Shown here: positions 20,930 through 49,167 of the stretch, piece after piece
Layout: each line of letters opens with the position of its first letter
Numbering within the stretch: the first letter of the stretch is position 1
DNA from: a virus
Virus record (IMG/VR): IMGVR_UViG_3300038443_002312
Coordinates: 51,674 to 115,673 of that record
Direction: 5' to 3' (one strand)
Length of the DNA: 64,000 nucleotides
Notes under the pieces: model-generated
The model's input: the letters and a program-made list of their open reading frames with translations, nothing else
Told to the model about the DNA's origin: nothing
Databases searched by the model: none
Made by a program: the position numbers and the translations under genes

Positions 20930-22291
20930 CTACAGCTTCTCTTCCAGGTGCCGCAGGTGTTCGGCGGCCAGCCGCTTGAGGGTCGCGATGGCCGGGTCCC
21001 CGGCCTTGTCCAGGGCCTTGTACTGGTGGTCGCCGACGTGCCCGGTCCCGTGGCACGTCTCGCACCCCTTCGAGAACTTGCCGAGCCGGCCGTGCTCCTG
21101 GGCGCACACCGGGCACTGGGCGTACGGCCGGGCCTCGGCCAGGGTCGCGGCCATCTCGGCGAGCCCCGGGCACGAGTAGACCGTCTCCAACTCGCCGTCC
21201 TGCTCCTTGGGCCGGGCCTTGAGCAGATTCGGGTGCTTGTCGGCCGCCCGGGCCAGGCGATCCCCGCCCGGGGCGGCGGCCAGGGCCGACACCGCCTTCA
21301 TCGCCTGGCGGACCAGCCCGAGGGCCCGGTCGAACTCCTCCCGGGCCTTGAACTGCTCGATCAGCCTGTCCGACCCGAGCGGGTGGTCGGCCTCGTCGGT
21401 CTCGCCCCGGGACAGCTGGATCACCGCCCGGGCCGCGGCCGCGACGGCGATCTTCCCGTCGTCGAGCTTCTTCGCGATCTCCTCGGCCTTGGCCTTCTTC
21501 TCCGGGGACAGTTCGTCGGACTTCGCGGCGGCGAACACGAGCCGGGCCTGGCGGAGGGACTCCGGGTTGGTGTTCAGGGCCTCGGCCACCCGCTCCCGCT
21601 TGGCCTTGCCGCCGACCGGGGCCCGCTGGTACACCCGGTCGAGTTCCTCCTTCCGCTTGACCTTGTCCGACCACTTCGGGTCGACCCGGTCGTCGTTCTC
21701 GGCCATCTCGGCCGCGAGCACCCAGGCCAGCCGGTCGGCCTGCTCCAGGTCGGACGTGTCGACGATCCGGGCCGGGATCGTGTCGAACTTCAACTCGTCC
21801 CGGACCGCGACCGTCCGCCGCCCGCCGGCCGTCAGCCGGTAGGACCCGTCGGCGTCGGCCGGCTCGACCACGATCGCGTGCATCAGCCCGTTCTTGCCGA
21901 TCGACCCGGCCAGGTCCCGGATGCCGGGCATGTCCGACCGGTACCGGTTTTCGAGCCTCACCTTGTCGACCGGGATGTTCACGACCGGGAAGTTGCCCCA
22001 GTGCTTCTTGACCCAGTCGGTCGCCTCGACCCCCTTGACCTCGCCCGGGGCCGCCGCCGGGGCGGCGCCGTCCGCCGGGACGGCCGCCGGGGCCGGGGCC
22101 GCCTCCTCCGGCGTCCTGGCCTTCGGGGCCTTGCCCCCCTTGCCCGGCTTGGCGGCCTTCGCCTTGCCGGCCTTGCCCTTCTTGTCCGGCTTGGCGCCGG
22201 CCTTCCCGCCCTTGCCGCCGCCCTTGAGCGCCCCGAGGGCGTCCCTGACCATCCCCTTCCCGTCCTTCTTCGCCTTCGTCGCCGTGGTCAT
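20930..22291 (-). CDS. ParB/Spo0J-like protein with Lys/Ala-rich N-terminus and C-terminal Zn finger
   Basis: LAGSIGKNGLMHAIVV...LTAGGRR...AENDDR; HTH-like ERVAEALN; CPVC/CETC. Confidence 0.8.
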   Translation of the reverse strand: MTTATKAKKDGKGMVRDALGALKGGGKGGKAGAKPDKKGKAGKAKAAKPGKGGKAPKARTPEEAAPAPAAVPADGAAPAAAPGEVKGVEATDWVKKHWGNFPVVNIPVDKVRLENRYRSDMPGIRDLAGSIGKNGLMHAIVVEPADADGSYRLTAGGRRTVAVRDELKFDTIPARIVDTSDLEQADRLAWVLAAEMAENDDRVDPKWSDKVKRKEELDRVYQRAPVGGKAKRERVAEALNTNPESLRQARLVFAAAKSDELSPEKKAKAEEIAKKLDDGKIAVAAAARAVIQLSRGETDEADHPLGSDRLIEQFKAREEFDRALGLVRQAMKAVSALAAAPGGDRLARAADKHPNLLKARPKEQDGELETVYSCPGLAEMAATLAEARPYAQCPVCAQEHGRLGKFSKGCETCHGTGHVGDHQYKALDKAGDPAIATLKRLAAEHLRHLEEKL

Positions 22292-22400: not shown

Positions 22401-23291
22401 TCAGAAGTTCGTCCACAGGCAGTGTACTAACTTGCGCTTGGCATTACCGCCGGCCGCCGCGTTCGGGACCTGCTTCTCGTGCCGGGTCCAGTGGTGCAGC
22501 CGGGCGACGTCGTCGTACAGGTCCGACCGCAGGCCGGACAGGGCGAAGTGGGCGTTCTTGAGCCCGCCGAGCGTGTCGAGCAGGGCGACGTGCTGGGCCC
22601 GGGTGTACTCGAACCGGTACACGTCCGGGGCGGCCCGGGTCTCGGCCAGCCACGGCGGGTCGAGGTAAAAGACCGCCCCGGGGACGTCGTACTTGAGGCA
22701 CACGGCCGGGGCGTCCCGGTTGAGGACGAGGACCCGGATCAGGCGGGCGCGGACCTCGGGCAGGCGGTCGACCGCCCCGAGCAGGGCCGACACCTGCTCG
22801 TTCATCCCGCCGCGGAGGCGGGACTTGGTCAGCCCGGCGAACGCTTCCCCCGTGTCCGTCCGCCCGGCGAGACACTGCCGGCAGCGGACGAAGTAGCTGA
22901 CGGCGGCGCCGACGTGCGGGGCGGGGAACGTCCCCTTCTCGGCCAGGAGCCGCCGGTACTCGTTGCTCGCGGCGACCGCCCGCTCCCAGGCGGGCTCGGA
23001 GAACGGGGTCAGCTGGGCCCGGCGGAGGAAGTCGAGGAAGACCGCCTCCGGCCCGCCGAGGACGGCCCAGAAGTTGGTCAGTTCGCCGTCCAGGTCGTTG
23101 ACCACCTCGGACACGCCCTCGGGGTCGAGGGCGAAGAGGACCGACAGGCCCCCGGCGTACGGCTCGACGTACGTGGTCCGCGGGACCCGGCCGACGACCC
23201 CGGCGATCCACTGGGCGTTATAGTTCTGACCACCGTGAGTCTTTAAGGTAGTCTTGATTCGCGTGTATTTGGGCTTGGTCTTAGTCGGCAT
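22401..23291 (-). CDS. Dam-like (D12 class) DNA adenine methyltransferase
   Basis: YVEPYAGGLSV, EVVNDLDGELTNFW, FYLDPPW. Confidence 0.88.
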   Translation of the reverse strand: MPTKTKPKYTRIKTTLKTHGGQNYNAQWIAGVVGRVPRTTYVEPYAGGLSVLFALDPEGVSEVVNDLDGELTNFWAVLGGPEAVFLDFLRRAQLTPFSEPAWERAVAASNEYRRLLAEKGTFPAPHVGAAVSYFVRCRQCLAGRTDTGEAFAGLTKSRLRGGMNEQVSALLGAVDRLPEVRARLIRVLVLNRDAPAVCLKYDVPGAVFYLDPPWLAETRAAPDVYRFEYTRAQHVALLDTLGGLKNAHFALSGLRSDLYDDVARLHHWTRHEKQVPNAAAGGNAKRKLVHCLWTNF

Positions 23292-23835
23292 CGGGGGCCT
23301 CGTGGGCGATGCGGATGCGGCAGGCACAGCGGTAGGCCGGGGCCTGGAGGAACACCCACCGGACCCGCGGGTCGCGGCCGGTGTCCTTGACCCCGAGCCA
23401 GGCCGCCACGGTGTCTTTCACGGCCTTGAACGCCCGGGGTAAATTCTCGTCTTCGTCTAACTGCTTGCCGCCGAGCCGGGTCATCGTGACGACGGCCGGG
23501 AGCGGGAACGTCATGACCGGGAGGGCGGCCCGGACGGCCTCCTTGACCGCCGTCTTGCGGCCGATCTTCGCCCGGAGGCCGCCGCCGACCGCGGACCCGG
23601 CGTTCGCCTCGGACACCAGCCGGACGTTGACGTCGACCTCGACCACCAGGCGGGCCAGGGGCGGGCGGGCGGGCGGCGGCGTCTTGCCCCGGCGGGCCGG
23701 GGCGGGGGCCGGAACTCCCCCGCCCGCGGTCGCCGCCGGGCCCGCCGCCGGGGGAGAACCCCCGACGGTGACGGTCGCGGTCCCGCGCTTCAGGGCCGCG
23801 ATCATCTCGTCCACGTTCCCCCGGATGGTCGGCAC
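23281..23835 (-). CDS. RusA-like Holliday junction resolvase
   Basis: SEAN...VTMTRLGGKQLDEDENL..AFKAVKD.VAAWLGVKD. Confidence 0.65.
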   Translation of the reverse strand: MPTIRGNVDEMIAALKRGTATVTVGGSPPAAGPAATAGGGVPAPAPARRGKTPPPARPPLARLVVEVDVNVRLVSEANAGSAVGGGLRAKIGRKTAVKEAVRAALPVMTFPLPAVVTMTRLGGKQLDEDENLPRAFKAVKDTVAAWLGVKDTGRDPRVRWVFLQAPAYRCACRIRIAHEAPDAD

Positions 23836-34163: not shown

Positions 34164-35195
34164 TCAGCGGTCGACGACGACCAGGCACGTCTTGACGCCG
34201 GTCGAGCGGAACGCCCCCTCGAACGCGCCGTCCGGGAGGTCGTACCGCTCCCCGCCGACCTCGTCGAACCACTCGCGGAACTCCGCCGCCTTCCGGTCCG
34301 CCCGGAAGAACGGGCCGGTCGACATGACGGACACGAGTCGTCCGCCGGGCCGCAACAGGGCGTGTGCGTGGCGGACGTGCAGGATGTCCTGGCCACTTTC
34401 AAAGGGGGGATTGGCAAGAACCCGATCGTACAACTCGGCGCGGGCCGTCCAGCTTCTCCCGGTAGCGTCCATTTCAGATGGCAACTGTTCCGGGGCTGGC
34501 AACTGAAGGAAGTCCTCACCGATCACCGTGTGCCCCTTCGCGGTCAGGATCTCCCGCAATTGGTGGTTGATCTCGCACACGTCGACCGCCGCGTCGGGGA
34601 ACGCCCCGCGGACGGCGTCGGCGATGTCCCCCTTGCCGGCCGACGGTTCCAGGACCCGCAACCCGGTCTTCCCGAGGACGTCCGCCAGGTCGATCATCCG
34701 GGCGATGACCGGGGCCGGGGTCGGGAAGAACCCGGGGATCTGGGCGAACCGGACGCGGGCCTCCAGGTCGCGGATCTTCGCGACCCGCGCCGCCTCTTCC
34801 TGCGCCGCCTTGTCCTCCGGCGACTGCCGGCCGTCCAGCCACTCCCGCAGGGCGACGGCCGTCTTGCTCGTGTCGTGGAACTCCCCGGTGTCGCGGAGCG
34901 AGTAGTGCCCGCCGGAATGGTCGACGCGGGTGGCCAGCATGGCCAGGAGTTCCTTCTTGCCGGCGATCCCGCCCAGGGCGGGCGGGCACCGGCCGGCCTC
35001 GTGCGCGTCGGCCAGCTTGAGGAGCGCGCCCCGGACCCGGGCCAGGTGGTCGGCCTCGATCCGGGCCGACGCGGCCTGCATCTGCCGCTTCGGGGTGTTG
35101 TCGAGGCGGGGGTGGCGCTTGTCGGCGATTTGCTTGGCCAGCGTCTCGGCCAGCTTGCGGAACCGGGGGGCAATGCTCGCGGTCTTCGGTGGCAT
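34164..35195 (-). CDS. N6-adenine-type methyltransferase with N-terminal extension
   Basis: GFFPTP, VLEPSAGKGDIAD, ANPPF. Confidence 0.88.
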   Translation of the reverse strand: MPPKTASIAPRFRKLAETLAKQIADKRHPRLDNTPKRQMQAASARIEADHLARVRGALLKLADAHEAGRCPPALGGIAGKKELLAMLATRVDHSGGHYSLRDTGEFHDTSKTAVALREWLDGRQSPEDKAAQEEAARVAKIRDLEARVRFAQIPGFFPTPAPVIARMIDLADVLGKTGLRVLEPSAGKGDIADAVRGAFPDAAVDVCEINHQLREILTAKGHTVIGEDFLQLPAPEQLPSEMDATGRSWTARAELYDRVLANPPFESGQDILHVRHAHALLRPGGRLVSVMSTGPFFRADRKAAEFREWFDEVGGERYDLPDGAFEGAFRSTGVKTCLVVVDR

Positions 35196-36225: not shown

Positions 36226-36855
36226 TCAGGCGGCGGCCGCCGGTTTGCGGCGGCGTTTGCGGGGGCAGAGGGCCAGGGCGGCGAGGTAGGCGCGGACGTG
36301 CTCGGTCGGGTGGCCGTGCTCGTCGAGCCAGTCCGCGGCCGCGCCGATGCCGGCGGCGTCGTCCCAGGTGACGTGGGCCCCGCCGCCGGGGGCCGCGAAG
36401 AACGCGGCCCGGATGGCCGGGGTGAGTTCGGCCATCACCTGGGCGGCGAGCAGGGCCCCGCGGAACACCTCCGACGGGGTCGCCTTGGCCCAGCGGACGG
36501 CCGCCGTGCCGTAGCCGAACGGGTAGGCCGAGCGGTCGCCGCGGAGGCTCCGCGGGGCCGTCATGCGGGCCACGTGGATGAGCACGTACCGGGTGCGGGT
36601 CGCCGGGTCGGTGAGCCACGCGTAGCCGGCGACGGTGCACGTCCGGTGGGGGACCGGGAGGTCGGCCGCGTGGGCGTGCCGGGTCGCGACCCCGTGGCCG
36701 CTCGACGCCATGTGGAACTCCGGGTGCCGCCACTCGGCCGGCAGGACGTCCAGGGCCGCCAGCCGGTTGGCGTGGCCGGCGTTGGCCAGCTCGCACATCC
36801 GGCGGAGTTCCGCGTTGACGGTTTCGAGCGTCGGATTGACCAGTAGTTTCACCAT
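36226..36855 (-). CDS. Hypothetical protein straddling the left border of the GGG-free zone
   Basis: Start motif GGAGGTCCACACATG. Confidence 0.65.
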   Translation of the reverse strand: MVKLLVNPTLETVNAELRRMCELANAGHANRLAALDVLPAEWRHPEFHMASSGHGVATRHAHAADLPVPHRTCTVAGYAWLTDPATRTRYVLIHVARMTAPRSLRGDRSAYPFGYGTAAVRWAKATPSEVFRGALLAAQVMAELTPAIRAAFFAAPGGGAHVTWDDAAGIGAAADWLDEHGHPTEHVRAYLAALALCPRKRRRKPAAAA

Positions 36856-36922
36856 GTGTGGACCTCCGGAACACGTTCAAGACAGGCGACCGGACGGCGG
36901 TAAGGCGGTGCGGTCGGTGCGG

Positions 36923-37165
36923 CTAGGCCGCGCAGTAAGGCTTCCAGTTCCTGACTTGCTCTCCGTTGAACCATCGTCCTTCATCGTGGTACAGATCGAA
37001 TAGCCAACCGGATGACTTGAGAGATTCGGCCTCTCGCTTCGTATCGACCGTGGCCAGAGTTCCGCCGGACTTGTTACGCAGCCTCCATTTCCGGCCGTGT
37101 TTTTGGACGGTCCAACCGGACGGCGGATCGGCGTCATGTTCTTCCGGTGTTGCGTGCAACGCCAT
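36923..37165 (-). CDS. Small early hypothetical protein
   Basis: Start motif; MALHATPEE... Confidence 0.7.
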   Translation of the reverse strand: MALHATPEEHDADPPSGWTVQKHGRKWRLRNKSGGTLATVDTKREAESLKSSGWLFDLYHDEGRWFNGEQVRNWKPYCAA

Positions 37166-37226
37166 GTGTGGACCTCGCGAGGAAGAGAACAGGACCGGCC
37201 GGCGGACTTCTCCGCCGGCCGGCCGA

Positions 37227-37475
37227 TCACACTTGCTCGAATCCGAAGTAGTCGGCGCCGCCACGGCCATCCTGACAGTCCACTACGCTGTACGTCTCAT
37301 CCGGTTCGTCCGAGTTGAGGTACCGGATGATTAACCACCAGCGGCCATGTTCAAATAGCGTGTCGAACCGGCGGTTTCTGGACTGGCGGCCGAACTGCGC
37401 GACGGCGGCGCGTCGGACCGCGGTTTCCGTCTTCCGGTCGTCAACTTCCGACGGTAGCGGCTTGCTGGTCGTCAT
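37227..37475 (-). CDS. Small early hypothetical protein
   Basis: Start motif; FEHGRWW...TYSVVDC. Confidence 0.75.
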   Translation of the reverse strand: MTTSKPLPSEVDDRKTETAVRRAAVAQFGRQSRNRRFDTLFEHGRWWLIIRYLNSDEPDETYSVVDCQDGRGGADYFGFEQV

Positions 37476-37539
37476 GTGCGGACCTCGCGAGGATAGGACC
37501 AGGCGGCCGACCGGCAGTGAGGCACGGCCGGCCGATCGG

Positions 37540-37809
37540 CTAGTAACCGGCCATGCCGGTCGTATCTCGGCCGAGTCGGTTCAAGAGGTGATAGACCGCG
37601 TTCGCGGCATAGTTCGGTTGCATCCAAACGCCTTCCTCCAGGAAGCGTTCGGTAGCGTACAACTCCGGAAGGACGACCGTTTCCGGCTTCTCGCCGATTC
37701 GGATGTACAAGTCATTGCACCAGTCGGCAACCGTCGGCGCCGACCGTTCGTAGTATTCGGCAATCGCGGTTAGCTGCGCTTTGATGGACTCTATCCAGTG
37801 TTGCGCCAT
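37540..37809 (-). CDS. Small early hypothetical protein
   Basis: Start motif. Confidence 0.7.
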   Translation of the reverse strand: MAQHWIESIKAQLTAIAEYYERSAPTVADWCNDLYIRIGEKPETVVLPELYATERFLEEGVWMQPNYAANAVYHLLNRLGRDTTGMAGY

Positions 37810-37875
37810 GTGCGGACCTCGCGAGGATGGAACGAAGTCCGGCCGGTCCGCGGTGGCGGATTCCGGCCGGTGCGG

Positions 37876-38142
37876 TCATTCGTCGGCCTGGTCGTCCGGT
37901 TCGTCCGGTTCCACCAGGTCCGTTTCCGCGGTCTGATCAATCAGGACAAAAGAGGTGTCGTCGTCCGTGGCGCAAATGTGCAACTCGCCGGAACCGGTCC
38001 GCGAGTTGTACCGATAGGTAATCCGGATCGAAACACCTGAAACGGTGGCGCCGTCGGCCGTCCGGAACGGCAGGAAATCCACTACGGCGGAGCTGTCCGG
38101 CTGTTCGACCGTCAGTCGCGGACTCTTGCGGTCGTCTGGCAT
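37876..38142 (-). CDS. Small acidic early protein
   Basis: Start motif; acidic C-terminus. Confidence 0.7.
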   Translation of the reverse strand: MPDDRKSPRLTVEQPDSSAVVDFLPFRTADGATVSGVSIRITYRYNSRTGSGELHICATDDDTSFVLIDQTAETDLVEPDEPDDQADE

Positions 38143-38204
38143 GTGCGGACCTCGTGAGGAAGACAGGCGGACGCACCGGCCGGCGGCCGGACGCGTCCGA
38201 GGAC

Positions 38205-38492
38205 TCAGGCCACGCAATCGGCCGGAATCCGGAACTCGGACCGGAACGGCGCGTCGTCCAGGTCGGCCGACCAGTCAGACCGGCTGACGTCTCCGGCCTG
38301 GTTGCAGTGCGCGACGCGGACGGTCACACCGGCCGCGATCAGGCCGCGACAATACCATTCACAGTCACGAAATGAGCCTTGTACCAACCGCCGCGCGTGG
38401 CGGCCGGACGCCTTGAGGCGGTCGCCTTTGTTCACGGCAAACACGTTGGCGATGCCAACCTGGTAGACCAAATAGGCGGTGTGGACCGGCAT
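38205..38492 (-). CDS. Small early hypothetical protein
   Basis: Start motif; AYLVYQVGIANVF. Confidence 0.75.
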   Translation of the reverse strand: MPVHTAYLVYQVGIANVFAVNKGDRLKASGRHARRLVQGSFRDCEWYCRGLIAAGVTVRVAHCNQAGDVSRSDWSADLDDAPFRSEFRIPADCVA

Positions 38493-38560
38493 GACGGAAC
38501 CTCCGGAACGGAATCGAAAAAGGCGGCCGGCCGGCGGCGAGGCACGGTCGGCCGAGAAGA

Positions 38561-38764
38561 CTACTTGCGATACTGGCCGAGTTCGCACACCACTTGCCTA
38601 GTGTGATCGGTCAGGCTCGCTTTACACGTCGCTTTGGTTCCGGAGACGACCAGGACCGGCTGACCGTCACGCATTTCCATAAGCGCGAACTTGTGCGCGG
38701 CCGGAATGGTGCCGATGTTCTCGGACAGCCACCGCGCCGGAGAATTCGGAGCGCCGACAGGCAT
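38561..38764 (-). CDS. Small early hypothetical protein
   Basis: Start motif. Confidence 0.65.
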   Translation of the reverse strand: MPVGAPNSPARWLSENIGTIPAAHKFALMEMRDGQPVLVVSGTKATCKASLTDHTRQVVCELGQYRK

Positions 38765-38863
38765 AGCGAACACCTCGCGAGGATAGGACCAGTCGACCGG
38801 ACGGCAGTGAAGCCGGTCCGGCACAGGCGGCCGGCCGGCGGTGAAGCCGGTCCGGCCGAGAAC

Positions 38864-39403
38864 TCAGACGGCGGCCGCCATCAGGACCGCACCGGCCGCG
38901 GCACGTGCCGCGAGGTCGGTTTCGCGCCAGGACCACGGCGCCGCCTCCAATTCCGGCCACGGCTCGCGGCGCCACTGACGCGCGGCGCCGCTCCGGCACC
39001 AGGCCGCGTACTTCGCGGCCGGTTTGTGCCGCGCGTGGATTTCCTCGATCACGGCATCGCACAATTTCTTGGCGGCACACTCCGACCAGGCCGGATGCTC
39101 GCACGCCTGGTAGGCGTAACAGCGCGCGAGGTTGTACAGTTCGGCCGCGGTCGGCCGGTAGCCGCGGTCGGTCCACGTGTACGCTTCCAGGTGATCCGGC
39201 GATCCTGGCAGTTCGTCCGGCCGGTCGCGCGGATACCGGTAGGCCACGGACCGGACGTTCTCGGCCGCGAGCATCGCGCCGAGCGAGTCGCGGCCGATGA
39301 CGGCGCGGCGGTCGGCCGGCCGGATGATTCCGTCCGACGTGCCGTCGAGGATGCCGGTCACGAGTAGGTCAATGTGCACGTTGCTGACGACGAACGCACT
39401 CAC
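38864..39403 (-). CDS. Early hypothetical protein
   Basis: MSAFVVSNVHIDLLV...ENVRSV.YRY...CYAYQACEHPAW. Confidence 0.75.
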   Translation of the reverse strand: MSAFVVSNVHIDLLVTGILDGTSDGIIRPADRRAVIGRDSLGAMLAAENVRSVAYRYPRDRPDELPGSPDHLEAYTWTDRGYRPTAAELYNLARCYAYQACEHPAWSECAAKKLCDAVIEEIHARHKPAAKYAAWCRSGAARQWRREPWPELEAAPWSWRETDLAARAAAGAVLMAAAV

Positions 39404-39501
39404 GGCGGAGACCTCGCGGAACACCGGCCGCCGGACTGGCGGCCGGAAGCGGCCGGCGGCACTCCGGAGAGCGCCGCCGGCCCGGTTTTGGGCCGGCCGG
39501 T

Positions 39502-39912
39502 CTAGTTGTCCGAAACGACGTGCGCGAACGCCTCCGCCACGGCCGGCGGCCAACCGGACCACGTGGCGAGCGCCGCGAGGTCGGCCGGCTTACCGGACAG
39601 CGCGGCGCGGTAGGCCGCGTTCACCTCCGGAATCGAGCCGGTGAAGAACCGCGCTTTCTCGGACTGCCACGTGCGGCCGTCGGCGCCGGTATAGCTCGTG
39701 TGCGTCGGCACGTCCGGCGCGTCGAATACGACCACGGCGGCCGCGTGGCCGGACCTCTCCGGCCACGCGGCGATCGACCGGACGGCGGTGCCGTCGTCGG
39801 TCGGAACCACCAGGATCGTGGCGCCGTACCGCGCGTCCGGATTCTTCTGGCCGTAGATTTCTTTGACGGCGGCGCCGGTCGCCGTGGTCTTCTCGCGGAT
39901 GATCACTTTCAT
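39502..39912 (-). CDS. Early hypothetical protein
   Basis: 136 aa ORF. Confidence 0.7.
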   Translation of the reverse strand: MKVIIREKTTATGAAVKEIYGQKNPDARYGATILVVPTDDGTAVRSIAAWPERSGHAAAVVVFDAPDVPTHTSYTGADGRTWQSEKARFFTGSIPEVNAAYRAALSGKPADLAALATWSGWPPAVAEAFAHVVSDN

Positions 39913-40036
39913 CGGACGGACTCACCAGGAAGGAAAGGAACACCGGAACTGGAGGACTCCGCCACGTGGCGGAAGGCCGGACGGCCGGCCGGTAGGCCGG
40001 ACCGCCGGAAGTGCCGCCGGTCCGCTGGCGCCGTAG

Positions 40037-40252
40037 CTACGGCGCCGTTGGACCGGCCGGCCGATCGGACCTGGAGCCGTCGCCGGACTGGCTCTTTCTA
40101 GACCGATTGCGAGAGAAGAACGCGTTGATTTGCGCGAGCGACCGGCCGCCGTCGCTCTCCGGATGGTAGACGCCGGAACCGAAGCAGGCCGGACAGTCCG
40201 GATCGCCACAACACGGATACACCTGGTCGGCCGGTAGCGTCTGGTCGTCCAC
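40037..40252 (-). CDS. Small Cys-containing early protein
   Basis: Start motif with GTG; CCGDPDCPACFG. Confidence 0.55.
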   Translation of the reverse strand: MDDQTLPADQVYPCCGDPDCPACFGSGVYHPESDGGRSLAQINAFFSRNRSRKSQSGDGSRSDRPAGPTAP

Positions 40253-40291
40253 GTGCGGACCTCGCGAGGAAGGAAGGACCGGCCGGCGCGA

Positions 40292-40558
40292 CTACTTAGC
40301 GCCGCGCGTCCGGTCCAGGAGCTTCAAGGCCGTGTCGATCATGCGCGCCGTCGGCATCGCGCGGTATCGCGCCTGATTGTCCGCGCCTAGCTTGTCGTGG
40401 ACACCGACCACCAGGCCGGCCGTTGTCAGGTCCACCGTGATACCGTCGATTTTCGCGTAACTCTTGCGGTCCACAACCGACCGGAACGCGGCCACGCGCT
40501 CCTCTCCGGTCGCGCACGTATGGACCGGCGTTCCGCCGGTCCGCTTGACGGTTGACAT
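40292..40558 (-). CDS. Small early hypothetical protein
   Basis: Start motif; YAKIDGITVDLTTA. Confidence 0.7.
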   Translation of the reverse strand: MSTVKRTGGTPVHTCATGEERVAAFRSVVDRKSYAKIDGITVDLTTAGLVVGVHDKLGADNQARYRAMPTARMIDTALKLLDRTRGAK

Positions 40559-40625
40559 GTGTTCACCTCGCGAGGAAGGAAGCCAGGACCGGCCGGCGGA
40601 CTTCTCCGCCGGCCGGCCGGTCCGG

Positions 40626-42002
40626 TCAGTTCCGGACGGCCGCCGTGGCCAGCTGGTACGCGGTCTGTTTGATGTCGTCTCCGGCGCCGGAGATGACGCT
40701 TTCGAACCGCGCCGACCGCTTGGCTTCCTCGGACCTCGCACGGCTCTTGCCGCCGAGTTTGCCGTGGTCCACCGATTCGGTTACCGCGTTGAACGCGGAC
40801 CAGGCCGAACCGCGGATGCCGCCGACGCCGTTGGTGTCGGAGTGGTAGCGGTCGAGCACGTCCTCTAGCAGTTCCTTCCGGTGCTTGGCTTCCGCCTCCA
40901 ACCGCTTCTTTTCGTACTCCTGCTCCGCACGCGTCACCTTCAGAGTTCGCGCCACCGCGTCAATGCCGGTTTCGAGCTGCGCCGCCGTGATGTCGCACAC
41001 CGAATCGAGTAGGCCGTTGAAGTAGGCCAGCGGTTCCATCGGCGTTCGCGCCATCACTTCGGCCGACTCGCGGAACTCCTCGAACTCCTCCACCGCGAGG
41101 CCGAGCGCTTCGGCGGCCGCCTTGCGCTTCGCCTGGAGGTTGCCGGTGTGGCGGATCGTAATGCCTTTTGACCGGTCATCCTTGTCGGCCATCCGCAGCG
41201 TGTTCGCGCAGACCACGCGGTGCGCCGTCGGAAAGCACTTCGCAGCCTCCGTGCCGTCGTGCGCGTTCGTGAACAGCGCGAACGGCTTGATTTCGTCTCC
41301 GGCCGTGACACGGAACGCCTGCTTTGGCAGGTGTACCAGCATCCACACTTTCTTGCCGCCGTGGATCGCGCCGGCGGTTTCGTACCTGGCGCCGAACCGC
41401 TCTAACAGGCCGTCAAGGAACTTGAACGCGTCCTCGTTCTGGAACGGTTGGTACCGGCCGCCGACCGAACCGAGATAGGCGCCGGTGTCGTCGCGGCTGA
41501 TCGCGAACGTGTCCGGCGCCTGGATGACCTCGCCGCGCGCGTTGGTGAACGTCATGTCTCGCTTGCTCACCTTCCAGTTCAGGCCGGCGAGCGTGATTGC
41601 GTCGGTGGACGTTACCGCCGACTCGACGTTCACGCCGAGACCGTGCCACGGCGCCGCACCGGCCACCATCACCGATATCCGGCCACCGGACGTGTCCAGG
41701 CCGGCGCGGCGGATGGCGGCCGACATGATGACGGCGCGGTCATTCTCCGGTAGCGCCATCACCAGCGGATGGATTCGCGCCTGATAGACCGCGTCGGACT
41801 CGCCGGACTTCCGGCGCAGTTCCTGGTACGCGCCGCACCGGATCATTTCGCCAGGATCGGACAGACCGGCGACGTAGTTGATGCTGGTGATGTCGCGGTT
41901 GGCCGTGATGATCCGCGGCCCGGAGGCGGCCGGACCGGACGCCGGTTCGGACGTGCGGCCGGCGACGGTCGCGGCGAGCGCGGCGTTAATGAGATCGGAC
42001 AT
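40626..42002 (-). CDS. DUF932/TIGR03299-like phage/plasmid protein
   Basis: PWHGLG, AGLNWKV, YQPFQNEDAF, YETAGAIHGGKKVW, NAHDG, RVVCANTL, IRHTG, AWSAFNAVTE. Confidence 0.88.
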   Translation of the reverse strand: MSDLINAALAATVAGRTSEPASGPAASGPRIITANRDITSINYVAGLSDPGEMIRCGAYQELRRKSGESDAVYQARIHPLVMALPENDRAVIMSAAIRRAGLDTSGGRISVMVAGAAPWHGLGVNVESAVTSTDAITLAGLNWKVSKRDMTFTNARGEVIQAPDTFAISRDDTGAYLGSVGGRYQPFQNEDAFKFLDGLLERFGARYETAGAIHGGKKVWMLVHLPKQAFRVTAGDEIKPFALFTNAHDGTEAAKCFPTAHRVVCANTLRMADKDDRSKGITIRHTGNLQAKRKAAAEALGLAVEEFEEFRESAEVMARTPMEPLAYFNGLLDSVCDITAAQLETGIDAVARTLKVTRAEQEYEKKRLEAEAKHRKELLEDVLDRYHSDTNGVGGIRGSAWSAFNAVTESVDHGKLGGKSRARSEEAKRSARFESVISGAGDDIKQTAYQLATAAVRN

Positions 42003-42166
42003 TGTGGAACCTCCGGATAAGGACCGGCCGGCCGGTCCGCGGCACCACGCCACGGTTACCGGCCGGCCGAGTGAGGCGACCGGCGATTAGGCCGGTCGCG
42101 ACCTCGCGAGGAAGGATACAGGCGACGGACCGACCGGCCGGCCGGCCGGCCGAGTCCGCCGAGTGG

Positions 42167-42430
42167 TCAGACCGCGACCTCGCGCAACCGAGCGTACAGG
42201 TTGCGGAGTTGTCGGCGGTATTGCGTCTCGTTCGGCCGGACGTCCGGCGAGCGGACGGACCGGAAGCCGCCGTACTCCATCGTCCAATCGGCGAACGCGC
42301 GGACCATGCCGTCCGCGTGCGCCAGGTACACTTTCGGCCGGTCTTTCAGGTCCTGGACCAGGTGTTGCATTTCGTCAAGGTCTTGGTTCGCGTAGGTGTG
42401 GACACGCGTAACCGGAATCGCGGTGAGCAT
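42167..42430 (-). CDS. Small early hypothetical protein
   Basis: Start motif. Confidence 0.65.
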   Translation of the reverse strand: MLTAIPVTRVHTYANQDLDEMQHLVQDLKDRPKVYLAHADGMVRAFADWTMEYGGFRSVRSPDVRPNETQYRRQLRNLYARLREVAV

Positions 42431-42509
42431 CGGTAGACCTCCGGAGGAGCGAGCAAGGCGGCCGGTCCGCCGGACTGGCGGAGTCGGCCGAGTGCCAACC
42501 GGTTGGCAG

Positions 42510-42719
42510 TTACCGCACGTGCTCCAGAGTGCAGAGCACCGGCGGAGTTCCGAGGACCACGGCGGCCGATATGCTCTGACACTCGATCCATTCGTCCGAG
42601 TGCCACGGCTGCACTCGGATCGTTCCGTCCGAGTGCCGGAGGACCGGCCGGCCGTTGTCCAGTGTGTGCACGATTTCCATGACGTTCACCTCAGTATCCG
42701 AGGACTCGAAACCGGACAT
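42510..42719 (-). CDS. Small early hypothetical protein
   Basis: Start motif; alternative start at 42680. Confidence 0.55.
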   Translation of the reverse strand: MSGFESSDTEVNVMEIVHTLDNGRPVLRHSDGTIRVQPWHSDEWIECQSISAAVVLGTPPVLCTLEHVR

Positions 42720-42841
42720 AGGCTAGGACCTCCGGAAGCGTCACATAGCGGAACACTAGCACGGCCGAATCCTCCGGCGGACCGGCCGCACCAGGCGACC
42801 GCGAGCGGACCGGCCGGCCGGTAAGCCGAACCGGACCAGGT

Positions 42842-43108
42842 TCACACCTCTTTCGCTTCCGACCGGCCGACGTTCTTCCAGGATTGCACGTCTAGAATGC
42901 AGTCGCGCGACCGTTCCGACGGCGGATAGATGCGGAAGAGGCGGCCGGAATACGGATGCTCAAACATGCCGTCCTTCACCGTGGCCACGAAATCGTCGCG
43001 GTGGAAGTAGGCCGAACCGGTCACCTGGTTGTTGGCGATTTCGAACGTGACCGTGATATCGCGCCGCTCCGGCGCCGTGATACCGTCGTCGAACCGAACT
43101 ACCAGCAT
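42842..43108 (-). CDS. Small early hypothetical protein
   Basis: Start motif. Confidence 0.7.
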   Translation of the reverse strand: MLVVRFDDGITAPERRDITVTFEIANNQVTGSAYFHRDDFVATVKDGMFEHPYSGRLFRIYPPSERSRDCILDVQSWKNVGRSEAKEV

Positions 43109-43169
43109 GGCGGAACCTCGCGAGGAAGGAAGGCGGCCGGCCGGCGGTGAGGCACGGTCGGCCGATTGG

Positions 43170-43364
43170 TCAGTTAACCGCCTTATAGCAGTTGCACGGA
43201 AACTGATGAGCGATCCGGTTTAACCGGTCGTACTCCGCCTCTCCGACCAGGCGGACCAGGCCGGCGGCCGAAATCGTGTCAGACGTGCCGTCGGAGAACT
43301 TCACCGAAAAACCGGACCAGGACCAGGACCAGAGGATATGCGTAACCGTCGGAGTGGTCGGCAT
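43170..43364 (-). CDS. Small early hypothetical protein
   Basis: Start motif. Confidence 0.65.
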   Translation of the reverse strand: MPTTPTVTHILWSWSWSGFSVKFSDGTSDTISAAGLVRLVGEAEYDRLNRIAHQFPCNCYKAVN

Positions 43365-43429
43365 GGCGTACACCTCGCGAGGAAGGAACGAAAGCGGACC
43401 GGCCGGCGGCGAAGCCGGACCGGACCAGG

Positions 43430-43609
43430 TTAATCAATCGGAACGACCTCGGTTTCCGCTCTCCAGTGTTTCCGGTAGAACGCCGATAGCTCGTTTGCTT
43501 TGTCGGCATCGAACCGGACTGCCGTTTCGCTGTTGCCGATCCGCTCGCCTCTCTCGTGAATGAACCACGTCTGTCCTTCAGCAGTCACTTTTACGATGAA
43601 CTGTCGCAT
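43430..43609 (-). CDS. 59 aa protein absent from the ORF track (first gene of the leftward operon)
   Basis: Manual translation MRQFIVKVTAEGQTWFIHERGERIGNSETAVRFDADKANELSAFYRKHWRAETEVVPID. Confidence 0.55.
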   Translation of the reverse strand: MRQFIVKVTAEGQTWFIHERGERIGNSETAVRFDADKANELSAFYRKHWRAETEVVPID

Positions 43610-43645
43610 GAAACGGACTCTTTAGAGTGAAGGAATACAGGAAAG

Positions 43646-43711
43646 GCATCCGTTCCGGAATCGAACCGGACCGGCGGCCGAAACCGCCGGAGCGCCAACC
43701 GCTCGGATTGC
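43646..43711 (-). ncRNA. tRNA-like cloverleaf with UUCG tetraloop in place of the anticodon loop
   Basis: T-arm TCCGG-TTCGATT-CCGGA, closing stem GCAATCCG/CGGATGC, D-like arm AGCG/CGCT. Confidence 0.55.
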
Positions 43712-44070
43712 TCGCAAGCGAGCGTGCCAGACAGGCGACTCACCGGCCGCCTGTCTTGTGTTGTGGACGTCGTATCCGGCCTGTGGCGCCGGACAGCGGA
43801 CTAGAGGTTACACACCTGATTTGCCACCGCACGTGATTCCGCAGACTCTTTCCGGACCTGTGCGAGCGTCCGGCCAACCGACCGGTTTCGAGCAACGCGG
43901 CACACCTCTACCGGCTCTTGTGAGCCGTCTTAGTGTGTTCCACAACCGGCGGACCTGTGCGAGTGGTTTCGAGATGTCAAAGATCGGCGTGCCGACTGGC
44001 GGTTACCGCGTGCGGCCTACTCGGCCGGTCCTGTCATTCCGACCAGGCCGTTCGCCGCACCGGTGTAGAG

Positions 44071-44130
44071 GAGTTTATACTAAACTCTCTCTCTCGTGTC
44101 AACCGGTCCTGCCAATTTTTTGTCAGGCCG
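44071..44130 (-). promoter_or_regulatory. Leftward sigma-70 promoter TTGACA-17-TATAAA with A-tract palindrome upstream and operator over the -10
   Basis: Minus strand reads TGACAAAAAATTGGCAGGACCGGTTGACA...GAGTTTAGTATAAACTC. Confidence 0.8.
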
Positions 44131-44449
44131 GTTTGTCGCGGCCGGCCGGTTTGCGGACGGCCGGCCGCGGCGAGAGAAGACAAAGCACGGCGCGTGCCGT
44201 TCGGCCGAATCTTGCCAATAAATTGTCGGACCGGCCGGTTTCGCGTTATACGCTCGTCTGGCGGCCGACCGGCCGCGGCCGCAGCTGACCACGGTCCGCG
44301 GCCGACCGGACGCCACGCGTGCGTTAAACGCGTCCGCCGCCGGTTCACCGCCGGCGCGAATTCCGGCGGCCGAAACCGTGGCCGCCGGACGACCAGGACC
44401 GTGTACTAAATCTGTACAGAGTGACAGCCGGACGACCAGGCGGCCGGCC

Positions 44450-44508
44450 GGTTGCCAAAAAATTGTCAGGACCGGTTGATTTCCGGACGGCACCAGTTTA
44501 GACTAAAC
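44450..44508 (+). promoter_or_regulatory. Rightward sigma-70 promoter TTGATT-17-TAGACT with operator GTTTAGACTAAAC
   Basis: TGCCAAAAAATTGTCAGGACCGGTTGATT mirrors the leftward promoter. Confidence 0.75.
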
Positions 44509-44556
44509 AACCGGCCGGCGGACGGTCCGCCGGTGCATGTAGGTGAGGACTCGCAA

Positions 44557-44796
44557 ATGGCCAGATGGTTCCGCTGCGAGAGTCCGGAGGAGCTTGCGAA
44601 GCGCCGCAAGGCGCTCCGCCGGTTCCGGACGCAAAAGGAAGTGGACCGCGAGGTTGACCGGCTGATCGCGCTCGAATTGAGACACGAGGACATCCGCGAC
44701 AGCCTTCCGCATGAGTCGCCGGAATACTGGAAGGCGCACGATACCGCCGTCAAGTACCGCGAGCGTGCGCGGCTACTCATGCCACCAGGAAGCTAA
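44557..44796 (+). CDS. Small early hypothetical protein
   Basis: GAGG SD; MARWFRCES... Confidence 0.65.
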   Translation: MARWFRCESPEELAKRRKALRRFRTQKEVDREVDRLIALELRHEDIRDSLPHESPEYWKAHDTAVKYRERARLLMPPGS

Positions 44797-44833
44797 TCGG
44801 CCGAAACCACGGAAACCGGGCCGGAGACACGAA

Positions 44834-45250
44834 ATGAACCTGCCGGACAAAATCACCGAACGCGTCCGAGCGTGGCCGCACTGGTCACGCGCCGAGCGCC
44901 GCCGGTTGGATGAGATTACCGACGAAATCCTGGGCCACTGCGCGAACGGCACCGGTAACCGGTTCGTCCGCGAGTGGTGTAGCCGCGTGCTCGCGGACCT
45001 CTTCCGCGCGGCCGGCGGACCGGAGATTCCGCCGGCCGACCGGATTCCGACGCGCGAGAATGAGGAAGTCTCGTTCGCCGCGCACGGCCGGACGTTCGTG
45101 GTCAAGAAGTTGTACGGCGCCGTCTGGTTCCTGAAAGCGACGGACCAGACGCGCGGCCGGTTCGGCGACAAACAGCAAATTCGCGAGGATATCGAGCATG
45201 CAACCGAATTCGGAGTCCTGCCGAGTGCCACCGGCGCCGGCATCTACTGA
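44834..45250 (+). CDS. Early hypothetical protein
   Basis: MNLPDKITERVRAW... Confidence 0.65.
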   Translation: MNLPDKITERVRAWPHWSRAERRRLDEITDEILGHCANGTGNRFVREWCSRVLADLFRAAGGPEIPPADRIPTRENEEVSFAAHGRTFVVKKLYGAVWFLKATDQTRGRFGDKQQIREDIEHATEFGVLPSATGAGIY

Positions 45251-45635
45251 CGAACCGGTCGTTCTCACTCGCGGCGACGGCCGGACGCTTCCGGCCGTGG
45301 TCCTGGTGGCCGAGAACGGCAAACCGGATGTGTACCTGGTCGCGGCGCTGCCGTGCGACCAGGCCGGACACCAGTTTTTCGAGCTGATCGGCTACCGGCC
45401 GAAAGATGCCGGTTATGAGTCCGGAGTCCGCCGGTATCACACGATGGTAGCGGAACCGACGGCGGACCGACCGGCGGCCGGCTTGTGCGACTGCGCGTGC
45501 GGCACGTACGGCCACCGCGCCGGCTCCGACCGGACACCGACCGGTAAACCGTGCCGCCACGTGCGATTTCTTTCCGCTCTCTGGTCGCGAGGTGAGTTGC
45601 CGTGTCTACCGCAACCGAAACGATCCGCTCGGTAG
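45198..45635 (+). CDS. SWIM-type Zn-finger protein
   Basis: CDC..GTY...PCRHV. Confidence 0.65.
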   Translation: MQPNSESCRVPPAPASTDEPVVLTRGDGRTLPAVVLVAENGKPDVYLVAALPCDQAGHQFFELIGYRPKDAGYESGVRRYHTMVAEPTADRPAAGLCDCACGTYGHRAGSDRTPTGKPCRHVRFLSALWSRGELPCLPQPKRSAR

Positions 45636-45934
45636 TCGGATTCTGGAAGCTTTATCCGGAACACGGCTTGCCGGCCGAAATCGAGGTCCAAGACTGGAGT
45701 CCGGTTCCGGAACCGCTCCGCGGCCGGCGCGACTCTCGTATCGTCGTCGTCATCACGTTCGGCGTCTACGATCCGCCGTCGAACACGTGGCAACCGGCGT
45801 TCCTGTGCGAGTGTGACGACCGGACGGAAGCCAACCGCGTAGCCGGTCAGTGGACCAGGTTTGTCGATCGTCTCTGGCAAGAATTGCCGTCGCGCCACGA
45901 CATCGCGGCGCGGAAAACCGTCCGTCTCACCTAA
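45602..45934 (+). CDS. Early hypothetical protein
   Basis: GCGAGGT SD upstream of GTG. Confidence 0.6.
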   Translation: MSTATETIRSVVGFWKLYPEHGLPAEIEVQDWSPVPEPLRGRRDSRIVVVITFGVYDPPSNTWQPAFLCECDDRTEANRVAGQWTRFVDRLWQELPSRHDIAARKTVRLT

Positions 45935-45948
45935 CCGCGAGGTCCGCT

Positions 45949-46410
45949 ATGAACGCCAAACCGCCAGTCCTGCCGATCGCCGTGGCCGCGCCGCCGGACG
46001 TCCGGCCGGCCGCCGGAGACACGGTTCTATCCGTGCGCCAGCCGTTCGCCTGGCTCATCGTCCACGGCTTCAAGCCGTATGAGAACCGATCCTGGAATAC
46101 CAACTTCCGCGGCCGGTTGTGGATTCACGCGTCCACCAGGCGGCCGGCTATCTCCGACGATGAGGTTCGCGAGGAATTGAGCATGACGTACGGTCTTCCG
46201 CCGGACCTCGCGGCCGCCTACCGGCCGGTGTACGGCGCCATCATCGGCGCCGCGACCGTGGCGGAAGTGTTCTTCGGCCACAGCGTGCCGCGGCGCGATC
46301 TCGGTAACGTCCACGTGGACGAATCCGATTACCACTGGCTTCTCGAAAATCCGGCCGTCCTCCGGACGCCGGTGGTGATGACCGGCCGCGTCGGACTGTT
46401 CAAGGTGTGA
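45949..46410 (+). CDS. ASCH domain protein
   Basis: LSVRQPFAWLIVHGFKPYENRSW...RGRLWIHAS; GAIIG. Confidence 0.9.
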   Translation: MNAKPPVLPIAVAAPPDVRPAAGDTVLSVRQPFAWLIVHGFKPYENRSWNTNFRGRLWIHASTRRPAISDDEVREELSMTYGLPPDLAAAYRPVYGAIIGAATVAEVFFGHSVPRRDLGNVHVDESDYHWLLENPAVLRTPVVMTGRVGLFKV

Positions 46411-46481
46411 GACGGTCCGGCCGGCGGTCGGTTACCTGAGAGCGGACCGGCCGCCGGTCGGCCGGTCCGCGAGGTCCGCAG

Positions 46482-46805
46482 ATGACACGGTCTGAGGCGA
46501 ACCAGGTGCTCTCACGAGCGATGCAGCCGGCATCCTACCGCGTGCGGAAGGACGGCCGGTTCTGGTTCGTGACTGAGGCCGAAACGCTCGGCTTGTGGCC
46601 GAGCACGTTCAAGACGCGCAAGGCCGCTCTCGCGGCGGCCGACCGGAGCGGCGCCGCCGGTGGCGCCGGCCGCCCCGGTCCTTGCATTCACGGAACACTA
46701 TCATGGGGAAGCCGACCGGGATCGCTTGTGAGTCCGACGAGTGCGACGGTCGGGACGTCCCGACGGAATGCGGCCGGCCCGAAGAGTACCGTTGACCCCG
46801 CGTGA
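46482..46805 (+). CDS. Hypothetical protein straddling the right border of the GGG-free zone
   Basis: Start motif CCGCGAGGTCCGCAGATG. Confidence 0.6.
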   Translation: MTRSEANQVLSRAMQPASYRVRKDGRFWFVTEAETLGLWPSTFKTRKAALAAADRSGAAGGAGRPGPCIHGTLSWGSRPGSLVSPTSATVGTSRRNAAGPKSTVDPA

Positions 46806-47318: not shown

Positions 47319-47612
47319 ATGGCCAAGTACCGCCGCCCCGCACGCCCGACGTACGACCTGGTCCTGGCCGCCGGCCGGGTCGAGGTCTGGTCCAACCTGG
47401 AGCCCGACCCCGTCGTCCTGACCGACCAGGAGGCCGGGACCCGGATCATCCACTACCCGGCGGTCCTGGCCGCGTTGCAGGGCTTGATCGACCCGGCCGG
47501 GAAGCCGGCCGACCCCGCCGGTCCGGTCGCGGCCGCCCAAAAAGCCCTCGCGGACGCCCTGGTGGCGTCCGCCCCGGTCAAGAAGCCCAGCAAGAAGAGG
47601 CCGAGGAAATGA
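47319..47612 (+). CDS. Hypothetical protein
   Basis: 97 aa; stop overlaps the next start. Confidence 0.6.
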   Translation: MAKYRRPARPTYDLVLAAGRVEVWSNLEPDPVVLTDQEAGTRIIHYPAVLAALQGLIDPAGKPADPAGPVAAAQKALADALVASAPVKKPSKKRPRK

Positions 47613-48380
47613 CCCTGCCGCCGATCGCCCGGGATGCCGCCGGAATCGCCCACATTGTCGCCCTGTCGGGCGGCAAGGACTCGACGTGTATGTCGCTGGC
47701 CCTCAACGAACGGGAGCCCCGGCCGTACACGTACGTCTGCACCCCGACCGGGGACGAGCTGCCGGACATGCTCGCCCACTGGGCGGACCTTCAGGTCCGG
47801 CTCGGCCAGCCGATTGTCAGGCTGACGAACGGGACCCTCGCGTCCCAGATCGATGCGAACCGGATGCTCCCGAACGTGTTCGCCCGGTGGTGTACCCGGG
47901 TCCTCAAACTCCGCCCGTTCGGGGCCTTCCTCGAACGGGCCGCCCCGGCGGTGGCCTACGTCGGGCTGCGGCACGACGAAGAGGATCGGGAAGGGACGCA
48001 GCCGGGGGGGGGACTCGGCCGCGATCGGGACGGCAGTCGAACACGACTTCCCGTTCCGGCGGTGGGGCTGGGGCCTGGAGCACGTCCTGGACTATCTGAC
48101 CAACGTCGCCCGGGTCCGCGTCCCGGTCCGGACCGACTGTGCCCGGTGCCCGTACCAACGACTGGGCGAGTGGTACAACCTGTGGCTCAACTACCGGGAA
48201 GTCTTTCTCTCCGCGGAAGCCGACGAGGAGCGATTCGGGCACACGTACCGGACCAGTACCCGGGACTCCTGGCCGGCCGCCCTCAAGGACCTCCGGGCCT
48301 TGTTCGAGGCCGGGACGATCCCGGAGCGGTCGCTGAAGATGATGGAACGCCGCGACATGTGCCGGGCCTGTACCTTGTGA
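47609..48380 (+). pseudogene. PAPS reductase/PP-loop family gene frameshifted at a G9 tract (48004-48012)
   Basis: ALSGGKDST, RWCTRVLK, VGLRHDEEDR in one frame; FPFRRWGW, RTDCARCPYQ in the next; G8 would restore the frame. Confidence 0.8.
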
Positions 48381-48390
48381 GGGTTCTGCG

Positions 48391-49167
48391 ATGGCCGTCC
48401 GCGAGAAGATCCCCCGCCTGTCGGCCGCCGACCTCGTGCCGGGGTTCGACCCGCCCGTCTGGCACCGCCCGCGGCTCTACAAGGGGCACGGGGGCAATGC
48501 GTGGGGCGACCGGATCGAGCGCCGGGACCCGCACCGCCAGATCGCGGGCCGCCTCCCCTCCCCGCTCGGGCCGGCCTGGTGCGTGTCCCAAAAGCTGTGG
48601 GTCCTGAAGTGCCAGGCGGCGGCCGCGAAGGCCGTGTTCCACCGGGCGATCGGGACCGGCACGGCCGAGGACCGGCACGACCGGTACGATATCGCCCGGT
48701 TCGGCTGGGTCGGGGTCAAGTGGTACCGCGACGGGATCACCCTCGGCCGCGTCCTGGCCGACCTCGCCCGCCTGACGGTCGCCCCACCGCCCGAGGAGAA
48801 GACCGATTTCGCCTGTCTGTTCGACCCCGTCCCGGCCGCCCCGTCCGGGTGCAACGGCCGGTCCCGGAAGGACCCGCAGGTCGTCCGCTGGCAGGCCGGT
48901 CAGCCGTGGCGGTACGACCCCGATGTCGGCCGCGTCCCCGTCGAGCCGTTCACCGACCCGACGTACCAGGAGTTCGCCCGCGGCCTGCTCGGGGACCTCT
49001 TCGAGACGGCCCGGCTCAACGGGGCCGCCGGGGTCGCCCCGCCGGCCGGGGCCTGGCACGAGCCCGTCGCCCTCGCCTGCGCGGCCGACGAACTCGACGC
49101 GGCCGGCGACCGAACCGGCCTGGCCGCCCTCCTGCGGCACGCCGCGAACCCCGCCCACTGGACTTGA
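48391..49167 (+). CDS. Hypothetical protein
   Basis: 258 aa ORF. Confidence 0.6.
   Translation: MAVREKIPRLSAADLVPGFDPPVWHRPRLYKGHGGNAWGDRIERRDPHRQIAGRLPSPLGPAWCVSQKLWVLKCQAAAAKAVFHRAIGTGTAEDRHDRYDIARFGWVGVKWYRDGITLGRVLADLARLTVAPPPEEKTDFACLFDPVPAAPSGCNGRSRKDPQVVRWQAGQPWRYDPDVGRVPVEPFTDPTYQEFARGLLGDLFETARLNGAAGVAPPAGAWHEPVALACAADELDAAGDRTGLAALLRHAANPAHWT

Follow-up and report, generated by a model that had tools for sequence, protein, structure and literature searches.

The trinucleotide GGG, together with its complement CCC, is almost completely excluded from one bounded interval in the DNA of an uncultured, high-G+C soil phage, IMG/VR record IMGVR_UViG_3300038443_002312 (115,673 bp). The window analyzed here is the last 64 kb of this record, and all coordinates are those of the window; the interval, called the zone below, occupies positions 36723 to 46672 (9,950 bp, 66% G+C). 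The explanation that we favor, at a probability of about 40%, is that the zone is an early module read by the host RNA polymerase, from which GGG/CCC would have been purged by selection from a site-directed, DNA-acting factor, most plausibly a nuclease-type defense, by a logic known from phage T5.

Only six GGG/CCC occur in the zone (at 36753, 39481, 39490, 41919, 44818, and 44932), where base composition predicts 711 and a first-order Markov model predicts 491. The initial annotation of this stretch, made from the sequence alone, had likewise counted six triplets against an expectation of several hundred. When the codons of the zone's own genes are shuffled synonymously, 176 ± 10 GGG/CCC are expected and 5 are observed. 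The density outside the zone ranges from 65 to 131 per kb (about 85 per kb over the rest of the record), and the longest GGG/CCC-free gaps there are 95, 91, and 88 bp, as opposed to 2,899, 2,728, 2,429, and 1,741 bp inside. There is no other such zone in the 115.7-kb record. GGG/CCC is the sole trinucleotide affected in the zone, with a ratio of 0.01 and the next lowest trinucleotide at 0.71, and none of the 4- to 6-mers is depleted to a comparable degree. Observed and expected k-mer counts with codon-shuffled controls, which had been proposed as a check, limit the depletion to the zone when applied to the whole record; in the flanks, GGG/CCC is exactly neutral with respect to codon shuffling (2563 observed, 2563.5 expected). 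The edges are abrupt, the outermost flank sites lying at 36722 and 46673, with normal density at once beyond them.

Avoidance of motifs by phages is known for restriction sites of 4 to 8 bp and is usually partial. Such classical avoidance occurs in the record outside the zone, where CTCGAG (0 versus 38 expected), GGATCC (0 versus 27), and CTGCAG (0 versus 10) are missing. The word excluded from the zone is 3 bp long and nonpalindromic, and its avoidance is local and almost total, which sets it apart from the classical pattern; with 6 sites in place of about 490, the exclusion is, as had been claimed, far more extreme than ordinary restriction-site avoidance. In the literature searched, no phage region free of a trinucleotide had been described.

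The ban acts on DNA. Noncoding zone DNA, 2.28 kb in all, contains no GGG/CCC where about 190 are expected, and the ban covers GGG and CCC alike on either strand, in units that are oriented in opposite directions. In addition, there are no sites where 23 to 28 are expected in the 375-bp spacer between the -35 hexamers of two divergent predicted promoters, which is covered by neither early transcript:

44074-44102, minus strand: leftward early promoter, TTGACA-17-TATAAA, scoring 11/12, the joint best consensus match in the record
44476-44504, plus strand: rightward early promoter candidate, TTGATT-17-TAGACT, a mirror image of the leftward module

Because coding, noncoding, and untranscribed divergent spacer sequences are all covered, the purge must act on the duplex, as the initial annotation had proposed, and codon choice is excluded as its cause. 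A ribonuclease or RNA-binding factor that acts on GGG or CCC in early transcripts would suit a region that is transcribed early, and endoribonucleases with short motifs exist (the MazF family and T4 RegB), but the loss of both words from both strands, from opposite units, and from the spacer that neither unit transcribes makes such RNA-level reading very improbable.

The ban also reaches the protein level, at the cost of changed proteins. Two combinations cannot be avoided synonymously, TGG followed by a codon beginning with G and ATG followed by a glycine codon. In zone genes, none of the 49 tryptophans precedes G, A, V, D, or E (19 expected), and none of the 52 methionines precedes glycine; the corresponding figures for flank genes are 84 of 204 and 11 of 161. 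Glycine and proline are also rarer in zone proteins. The effect can be followed in the one conserved protein of the leftward unit:

40626-42002, minus strand: DUF932 protein P0001, 458 amino acids (aa), Pfam PF06067 (E = 4e-50, 171 bits against a cut-off of 23)

This protein was said to lack MG and WG dipeptides, and it contains neither M-G nor W-[GAVDE]. At a position where WV is found in 43 of 46 homologues, it reads YV, and at another, where 41 of 58 have WA, it reads WS. As had also been noted, WG reappears just past the right border, at 46701 to 46706. There are 933 DUF932 homologues at E <= 1e-20, and the loci of DUF932 relatives that were fetched all have normal GGG/CCC density, so DUF932 neighborhoods as such do not carry the ban.

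All six surviving sites are isolated GGGCC/GGCCC:

36753-36757, plus strand: tolerated GGGCC
39479-39483: tolerated GGCCC
39490-39494: tolerated GGGCC/GGCCC site
41917-41921: tolerated GGCCC
44818-44822: tolerated GGGCC/GGCCC site
44932-44936: tolerated GGGCC/GGCCC site

The sites at 39481 and 39490 form the two arms of one hairpin. In the flanks, CC follows only 23% of isolated GGG, and under different null models the probability that six of six survivors would be of the exempt type ranges from 5e-6 to 6e-4, indicating that the exemption is part of the rule. Even so, GGGCC is still about 25-fold rarer in the zone than in the flanks. Either the specificity of the reader is two bases longer than GGG/CCC, or modification at GGCC shields these sites. 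Among the single-base changes possible in the zone, 13.7% would create a GGG/CCC (13.3% of these of the exempt type), and the ban must therefore be in force now or have been lifted very recently.

Two ORFs (open reading frames) cross the borders, and two copies of a palindrome discussed below lie within the zone:

36226-36855, minus strand: gene crossing the left border, the first ~44 codons of which obey the ban, the rest being saturated with GGG/CCC
46482-46805, plus strand: ORF crossing the right border, with a cassette-type start and a poorly coding tail beyond 46672
36758-36771: GCCAR-N4-TTGGC palindrome with a CCGG center, 35 bp inside the left border
42494-42507: GCCAR-N4-TTGGC palindrome with a CCGG center

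Both borders had been placed inside ORFs. This holds on the left, where a G+C content at third codon positions (GC3) of 0.96 and a cassette-type ribosome-binding site mark a real gene; it is doubtful on the right, where the tail looks noncoding. Joins and sequencing depth were read from Logan contigs. Two contigs from sequencing run X1 span the left and right borders without a mismatch, and another from run X6 spans the left border. Because independent assemblies from other samples bridge them, the joins are real, which rules out the assembly chimera that had been named as a refuting scenario. Short joints and loose ends in Logan contigs, including one at 36735 in X7, have sides of about 20 to 25 nucleotides (nt) and 88% likeness and were set aside as spurious.

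Three local features suggest that selection has acted where the zone now lies. The final 72 nt on the zone side of the left border (codons 21 to 44 of the crossing gene) combine a flank-type GC3 of 1.0 with no nonexempt site, a gap with a probability of about 0.007 in flank DNA. The start motif of zone genes, GAGGTCCGCACATG, extends by one gene across the border, in the form GAGGCCCCCACATG. Lastly, the palindrome GCCAR-N4-TTGGC has 77 matches in the window against 7.5 expected, 10-fold over chance; its flank copies are often centered on CGGG/CCCG, and it has the CCGG center in the zone. Most copies of this palindrome are situated at gene junctions (e.g., 2157, 11044, 14218, 20917, 28803, and 42494), and it may serve the ParB-like protein of the phage, or another regulator, as a parS-like site or an operator.

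The initial annotation had named a recent import from a GGG-free donor as another refuting scenario, and the module might have been recombined recently from a phage in which the ban operated, persisting here as an undecayed fossil. Its composition speaks for such an import, as the G+C content of the zone is 0.66 versus 0.74 elsewhere and its GC3 is 0.80 versus 0.96; flank genes that were purged synonymously in a simulation came down only to 0.90. The tetranucleotide signature of the zone, with words containing GGG/CCC excluded, correlates with the rest of the record at an r of 0.13 to 0.26, compared with 0.66 to 0.92 for untouched control chunks and 0.45 to 0.79 for purged ones. Because GC3 and tetranucleotide signature deviate beyond the purge controls, the zone has either a separate history or a selective regime of its own, which is common in early accessory regions of phages. 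The edges, moreover, are sharp and fall at or inside ORFs, and the noncoding-looking tail of the right-border ORF resembles a junction scar. In opposition to these points, about one in seven substitutions creates a site, such that a neutral divergence of 0.25% would leave only a 4% chance of finding no nonexempt site, and all six survivors are of the exempt type (P ~ 5e-6 under the point-change null). The last 72 nt of the ban carry the codon usage of the flank, the genome-wide palindrome is present in the zone, and the cassette start motif runs past the border. An import would also merely shift the question of the reader to the donor phage, and we consider it distinctly unlikely.

One further apparent mark of foreignness was rejected. 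GCGC is avoided 3-fold in the flanks and not in the zone, with the switch at the right border; outside the zone, the record contains 405 GCGC versus 955 expected, and 101 versus 307 in comparison with codon-shuffled genes. In flank genes, a synonymous GGG/CCC purge lifts the density of GCGC from 3.4 to 25 per kb, and because the purge alone raises GCGC 7-fold, the 11.5 per kb seen in the zone is a side effect of the ban.

Judged by its sequence, the zone is a probable early module: ~22 small orphan genes are arranged in two inverse units, and one promoter comes close to the host-type consensus. The remaining features of this module are as follows:

36923-43609, minus strand: leftward unit of ~16 small orphan genes plus the DUF932 gene, from GC3-based gene calls
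43610-44451: noncoding center of the zone, with two mirror-image promoter/operator modules
44111-44124: operator-like GCCAA-N4-TTGTC upstream of the leftward -35 hexamer, found by pattern search, with more copies at 44214-44227 and 44454-44467
44530-46410, plus strand: rightward unit of five genes, from gene calls
45850-46410, plus strand: ASCH-domain gene, the last of the rightward unit (PF04266, E = 3e-4; phrog_3193, E = 3e-28)
37190-37228 and 40584-40622: two copies of a 39-nt GC-rich hairpin, 97% identical

Each promoter module consists of an operator-like GACAA-N4-TTGGC, then AGGACCGG, then the -35 hexamer, and the two modules form an inverted repeat (I6) with 93% complementarity. Many of the leftward genes are cassettes with a GC-rich hairpin, the start motif GAGGTCCGCACATG, and a palindromic ribosome-binding site, CCTCGCGAGG, and the leftward unit contains the repeat families D1 to D8. 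The starts of several small zone ORFs are approximate. About 20 small genes and strong promoters of host type had been claimed earlier, and the gene count and the leftward promoter bear this out. Host-type promoter-like sites occur outside the zone too, and a promoter scan requiring T at the last -10 position returned 0 matches. Both transcription units extend into the flanks, the left one into a DNA methyltransferase and replication genes and the right one into a PAPS-reductase-like gene.

When 20 zone ORFs were compared with Pfam and 6 with PHROGs, DUF932 and ASCH were the sole matches, with no homologue of the T5 pre-early genes A1, A2, or dmp among them. The protein atlas yielded no usable match for two zone proteins, sequence searches of PDB were uninformative, Rfam gave nothing above the gathering score, and no paralogues were found among the small ORFs across the border. 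The copies of the 39-nt hairpin coincide exactly with breaks in the Logan assemblies of several samples. An 88-aa early protein (37876-38142, minus strand) has a pI of 4.1, with 20 acidic and 7 basic residues, and is a candidate anti-restriction protein of the DNA-mimic type. The ~450 bp downstream of the leftward promoter (43610-44060) contain no convincing ORF and several hairpins, and this segment could be a leader or encode a small RNA.

The closest known parallel is the pre-early region of phages T5 and BF23, a terminal repeat of ~9.7 to 10 kb with two inversely oriented units, and in these phages both Type I and Type II restriction are effective only at sites inside that region (PMC10644984, citing Davison and Brunel 1979). 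Like this first-step-transfer repeat, the zone is ~10 kb in size and has two inverse units of small, mostly orphan genes with strong host-type promoters, and a putative defense word is missing from it and neutral elsewhere in the genome. In contrast to the zone, where ~490 sites of a nonpalindromic 3-bp word are missing, the words avoided in T5 are ordinary restriction sites of 4 to 7 bp and their avoidance is modest; furthermore, the long noncoding stretch is central in the zone but at the repeat edge in T5. In T7-like phages facing Type I restriction, sensitivity depends on sites in the early-entering genome end, which is exposed while the anti-restriction product has yet to be made, and these phages have a single leading end, inward-facing promoters, a bipartite Type I site, and no general word ban (PMC12455610). 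The block of small early genes in the zone also resembles the host-takeover module of SPO1. That module lies within a long terminal repeat and comprises ~24 small early genes, whose ribosome-binding sites are strong and whose promoters and terminators are numerous, and the DNA of SPO1 is modified at every thymine and not at a sequence word; we know of no trinucleotide exclusion described for it.

Since both strands are kept free of GGG/CCC at a cost to proteins, something in the infected cell must read this word on zone DNA. Under the favored explanation, the two inverse units would fire from the central mirror-image promoter/operator pair and be read by host polymerase, and a DNA-acting factor in the infected cell would hit the module while its DNA is exposed and needed. 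Strong selection on duplex DNA would then remove GGG/CCC from the interval, sparing only GGGCC. The bulk of the genome would be out of reach of this factor, either because it enters later or because it is shielded by the products of the module. A reader that cleaves DNA would make any site anywhere in the module fatal, and its hitting only the early-exposed module would explain both the uniform, total purge and the neutrality elsewhere, the latter being what is expected if the bulk DNA never meets the reader. Three parts of this explanation are inferences: the nuclease nature of the reader, its origin in the host, and the place of the zone in a terminal repeat or as the first DNA to enter. The initial annotation had arrived at a similar module, and its purge of duplex DNA, its reach into proteins, its small early genes with host-type promoters, and its T5/BF23-like size and layout stand; the terms modification-free and first-expressed, which it applied to the module, are hypotheses.

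Several points weigh against this explanation. The record, which is classed as linear with a CheckV completeness of ~71%, is a linear fragment in which the zone is internal, 17 kb from the nearer end. The cultured-phage matches of its large terminase are mostly T4-like headful packagers, which fits poorly with a genome of fixed ends, although the evidence is weak. The GC3 and tetranucleotide deviations given above exceed what the purge itself would produce, and the depth ratios below are unequal. We know of no bacterial nuclease with a 3-bp site, and a host with such an enzyme would need to protect ~85 sites per kb of its own DNA.

A terminal repeat predicts raised coverage. The zone is sequenced more deeply than its flanks. 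In X6, four zone contigs (G+C content of 0.64 to 0.67) have depths of 9.2 to 10.4, and three flank contigs (0.71 to 0.78) have depths of 3.8 to 4.4; in X1, the depth is 22.2 in the zone and ~13.5 in the flank. Where the initial annotation had proposed to look for doubled coverage, the depth thus changes by 1.67-fold in X1 and ~2.4-fold in X6, not by a clean factor of 2. One X6 contig stops at 46670, two bases short of the border. A collapsed terminal repeat, poor sequencing of modified bulk DNA, or a threshold-like G+C bias could each give such a step; because depth in X6 is flat across G+C content within each compartment, G+C bias is unlikely to be its sole cause. The step fits a terminal repeat without proving one.

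The lower and sample-dependent depth of the bulk DNA (by 1.67-fold and ~2.4-fold) is also as expected from modified DNA that amplifies poorly, which would accord with the main rival explanation, modification by the phage itself. Here, a phage enzyme that is blind to GGGCC would modify GGG/CCC genome-wide, and genes read by the host polymerase would be kept free of the word since the adduct would disturb transcription or the binding of regulators. Neutrality of GGG/CCC in the bulk genome agrees with this proposal, and the record is dense in candidate DNA-modification genes:

16125-16964, 22401-23327, and 34164-35195: three DNA methyltransferases
12034-12774: PAPS-reductase-like PP-loop protein
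47609-48607: second PAPS-reductase-like PP-loop protein, just right of the zone in the rightward unit
20930-22291: ParB_N protein
14237-15694: cpYpsA SLOG protein

Phage enzymes with 2-nt targets exist, as DpdA of phage iggy is reported to insert dPreQ0 at a strict GA motif (PMC10484667), so words of 2 to 3 nt can be recognized genome-wide by such enzymes. Unlike in iggy-type modification, there is no DpdA/TGT gene in the present record: no match to PF01702 was found in its 115.7 kb (~71% complete), whereas all control genomes matched. Nor was a C5 methyltransferase found in these 115 kb, or any enzyme whose specificity would plausibly be for G/C runs, and the methyltransferase adjoining the zone resembles N6-adenine enzymes. 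To our knowledge, the known major-groove hypermodifications (those of T4, SPO1, and the 7-deazaguanine phages) do not stop host RNA polymerase, and no motif-free early region has been reported for DpdA phages. A penalty per site that is sufficient to clear noncoding DNA and both strands also arises more easily from cleavage than from impaired transcription. Modification by the phage itself is, on balance, unlikely.

The depth step is also compatible with the terminal repeat of a further proposal, in which the replicative primase would initiate at GGG/CCC recognized within 5 nt, and a word-free repeat would stay single-stranded on the lagging template and aid the formation of concatemers by annealing. 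Primases are the best-known readers of trinucleotides, and flanking bases matter to them, as with the GTC of T7 in GGGTC, TGGTC, and GTGTC; both strands would matter, too. However, the record yielded no match to a primase family, one priming site would hardly be expected to kill the phage, and a total purge at the cost of conserved residues would be unexpected, all of which makes a primase desert very unlikely. Causes other than those considered here are about as probable as self-modification.

The exclusion of a 3-bp word by ~100-fold from a bounded 10 kb, with neutrality next door, implies a reader of very short DNA words, and we know of no catalogue of defense or modification systems that describes one. 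We give even odds that high-G+C soil bacteria or their phages harbor a DNA-acting factor of a kind not yet described, which recognizes the 3-bp word GGG/CCC but is blind to GGGCC, representing either a new form of host immunity or a context-specific modification of phage DNA. The effect of such a factor would be powerful enough to reshape an entire early module of 10 kb, including the proteins that it encodes. The zone marks which phage DNA is exposed to the reader, and the tolerance of GGGCC limits what its specificity can be. Should this reader prove to be a defense, the small orphan genes of the zone become prime candidates for counter-defense.

Additional genes of the record are the following:

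2832-4463: large terminase
8835-9833: Rad52-like protein
18137-19777: helicase

The G+C content of the record is ~74%, and the minus strand holds nearly all genes. The identity of its large terminase is at most ~25% to that of any cultured phage and at most ~54% to anything in a large protein collection, and the lineage is judged isolated because this protein is so distant from all matches. A megablast search of the zone against phages and plasmids returned nothing, and IMG/VR, when scanned with two DNA motifs, P0074, the DUF932 protein, the methyltransferase, the helicase, the large terminase, and a zone protein of 232 aa, yielded nothing beyond chance matches and DUF932 loci with 42 to 49% identity. 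Metagenome and genome scans likewise gave only distant DUF932 loci, and no RNA data set is among the sequencing runs listed. The scan that scored the leftward promoter also picked out a promoter-like TTGACC-17-TAGATT at genome position 16855, outside the window. The same DNA is present in metagenomes of soil and rhizosphere (at least seven runs, belonging to different studies), and a variant protein, P0122, is encoded on a 24-kb contig.

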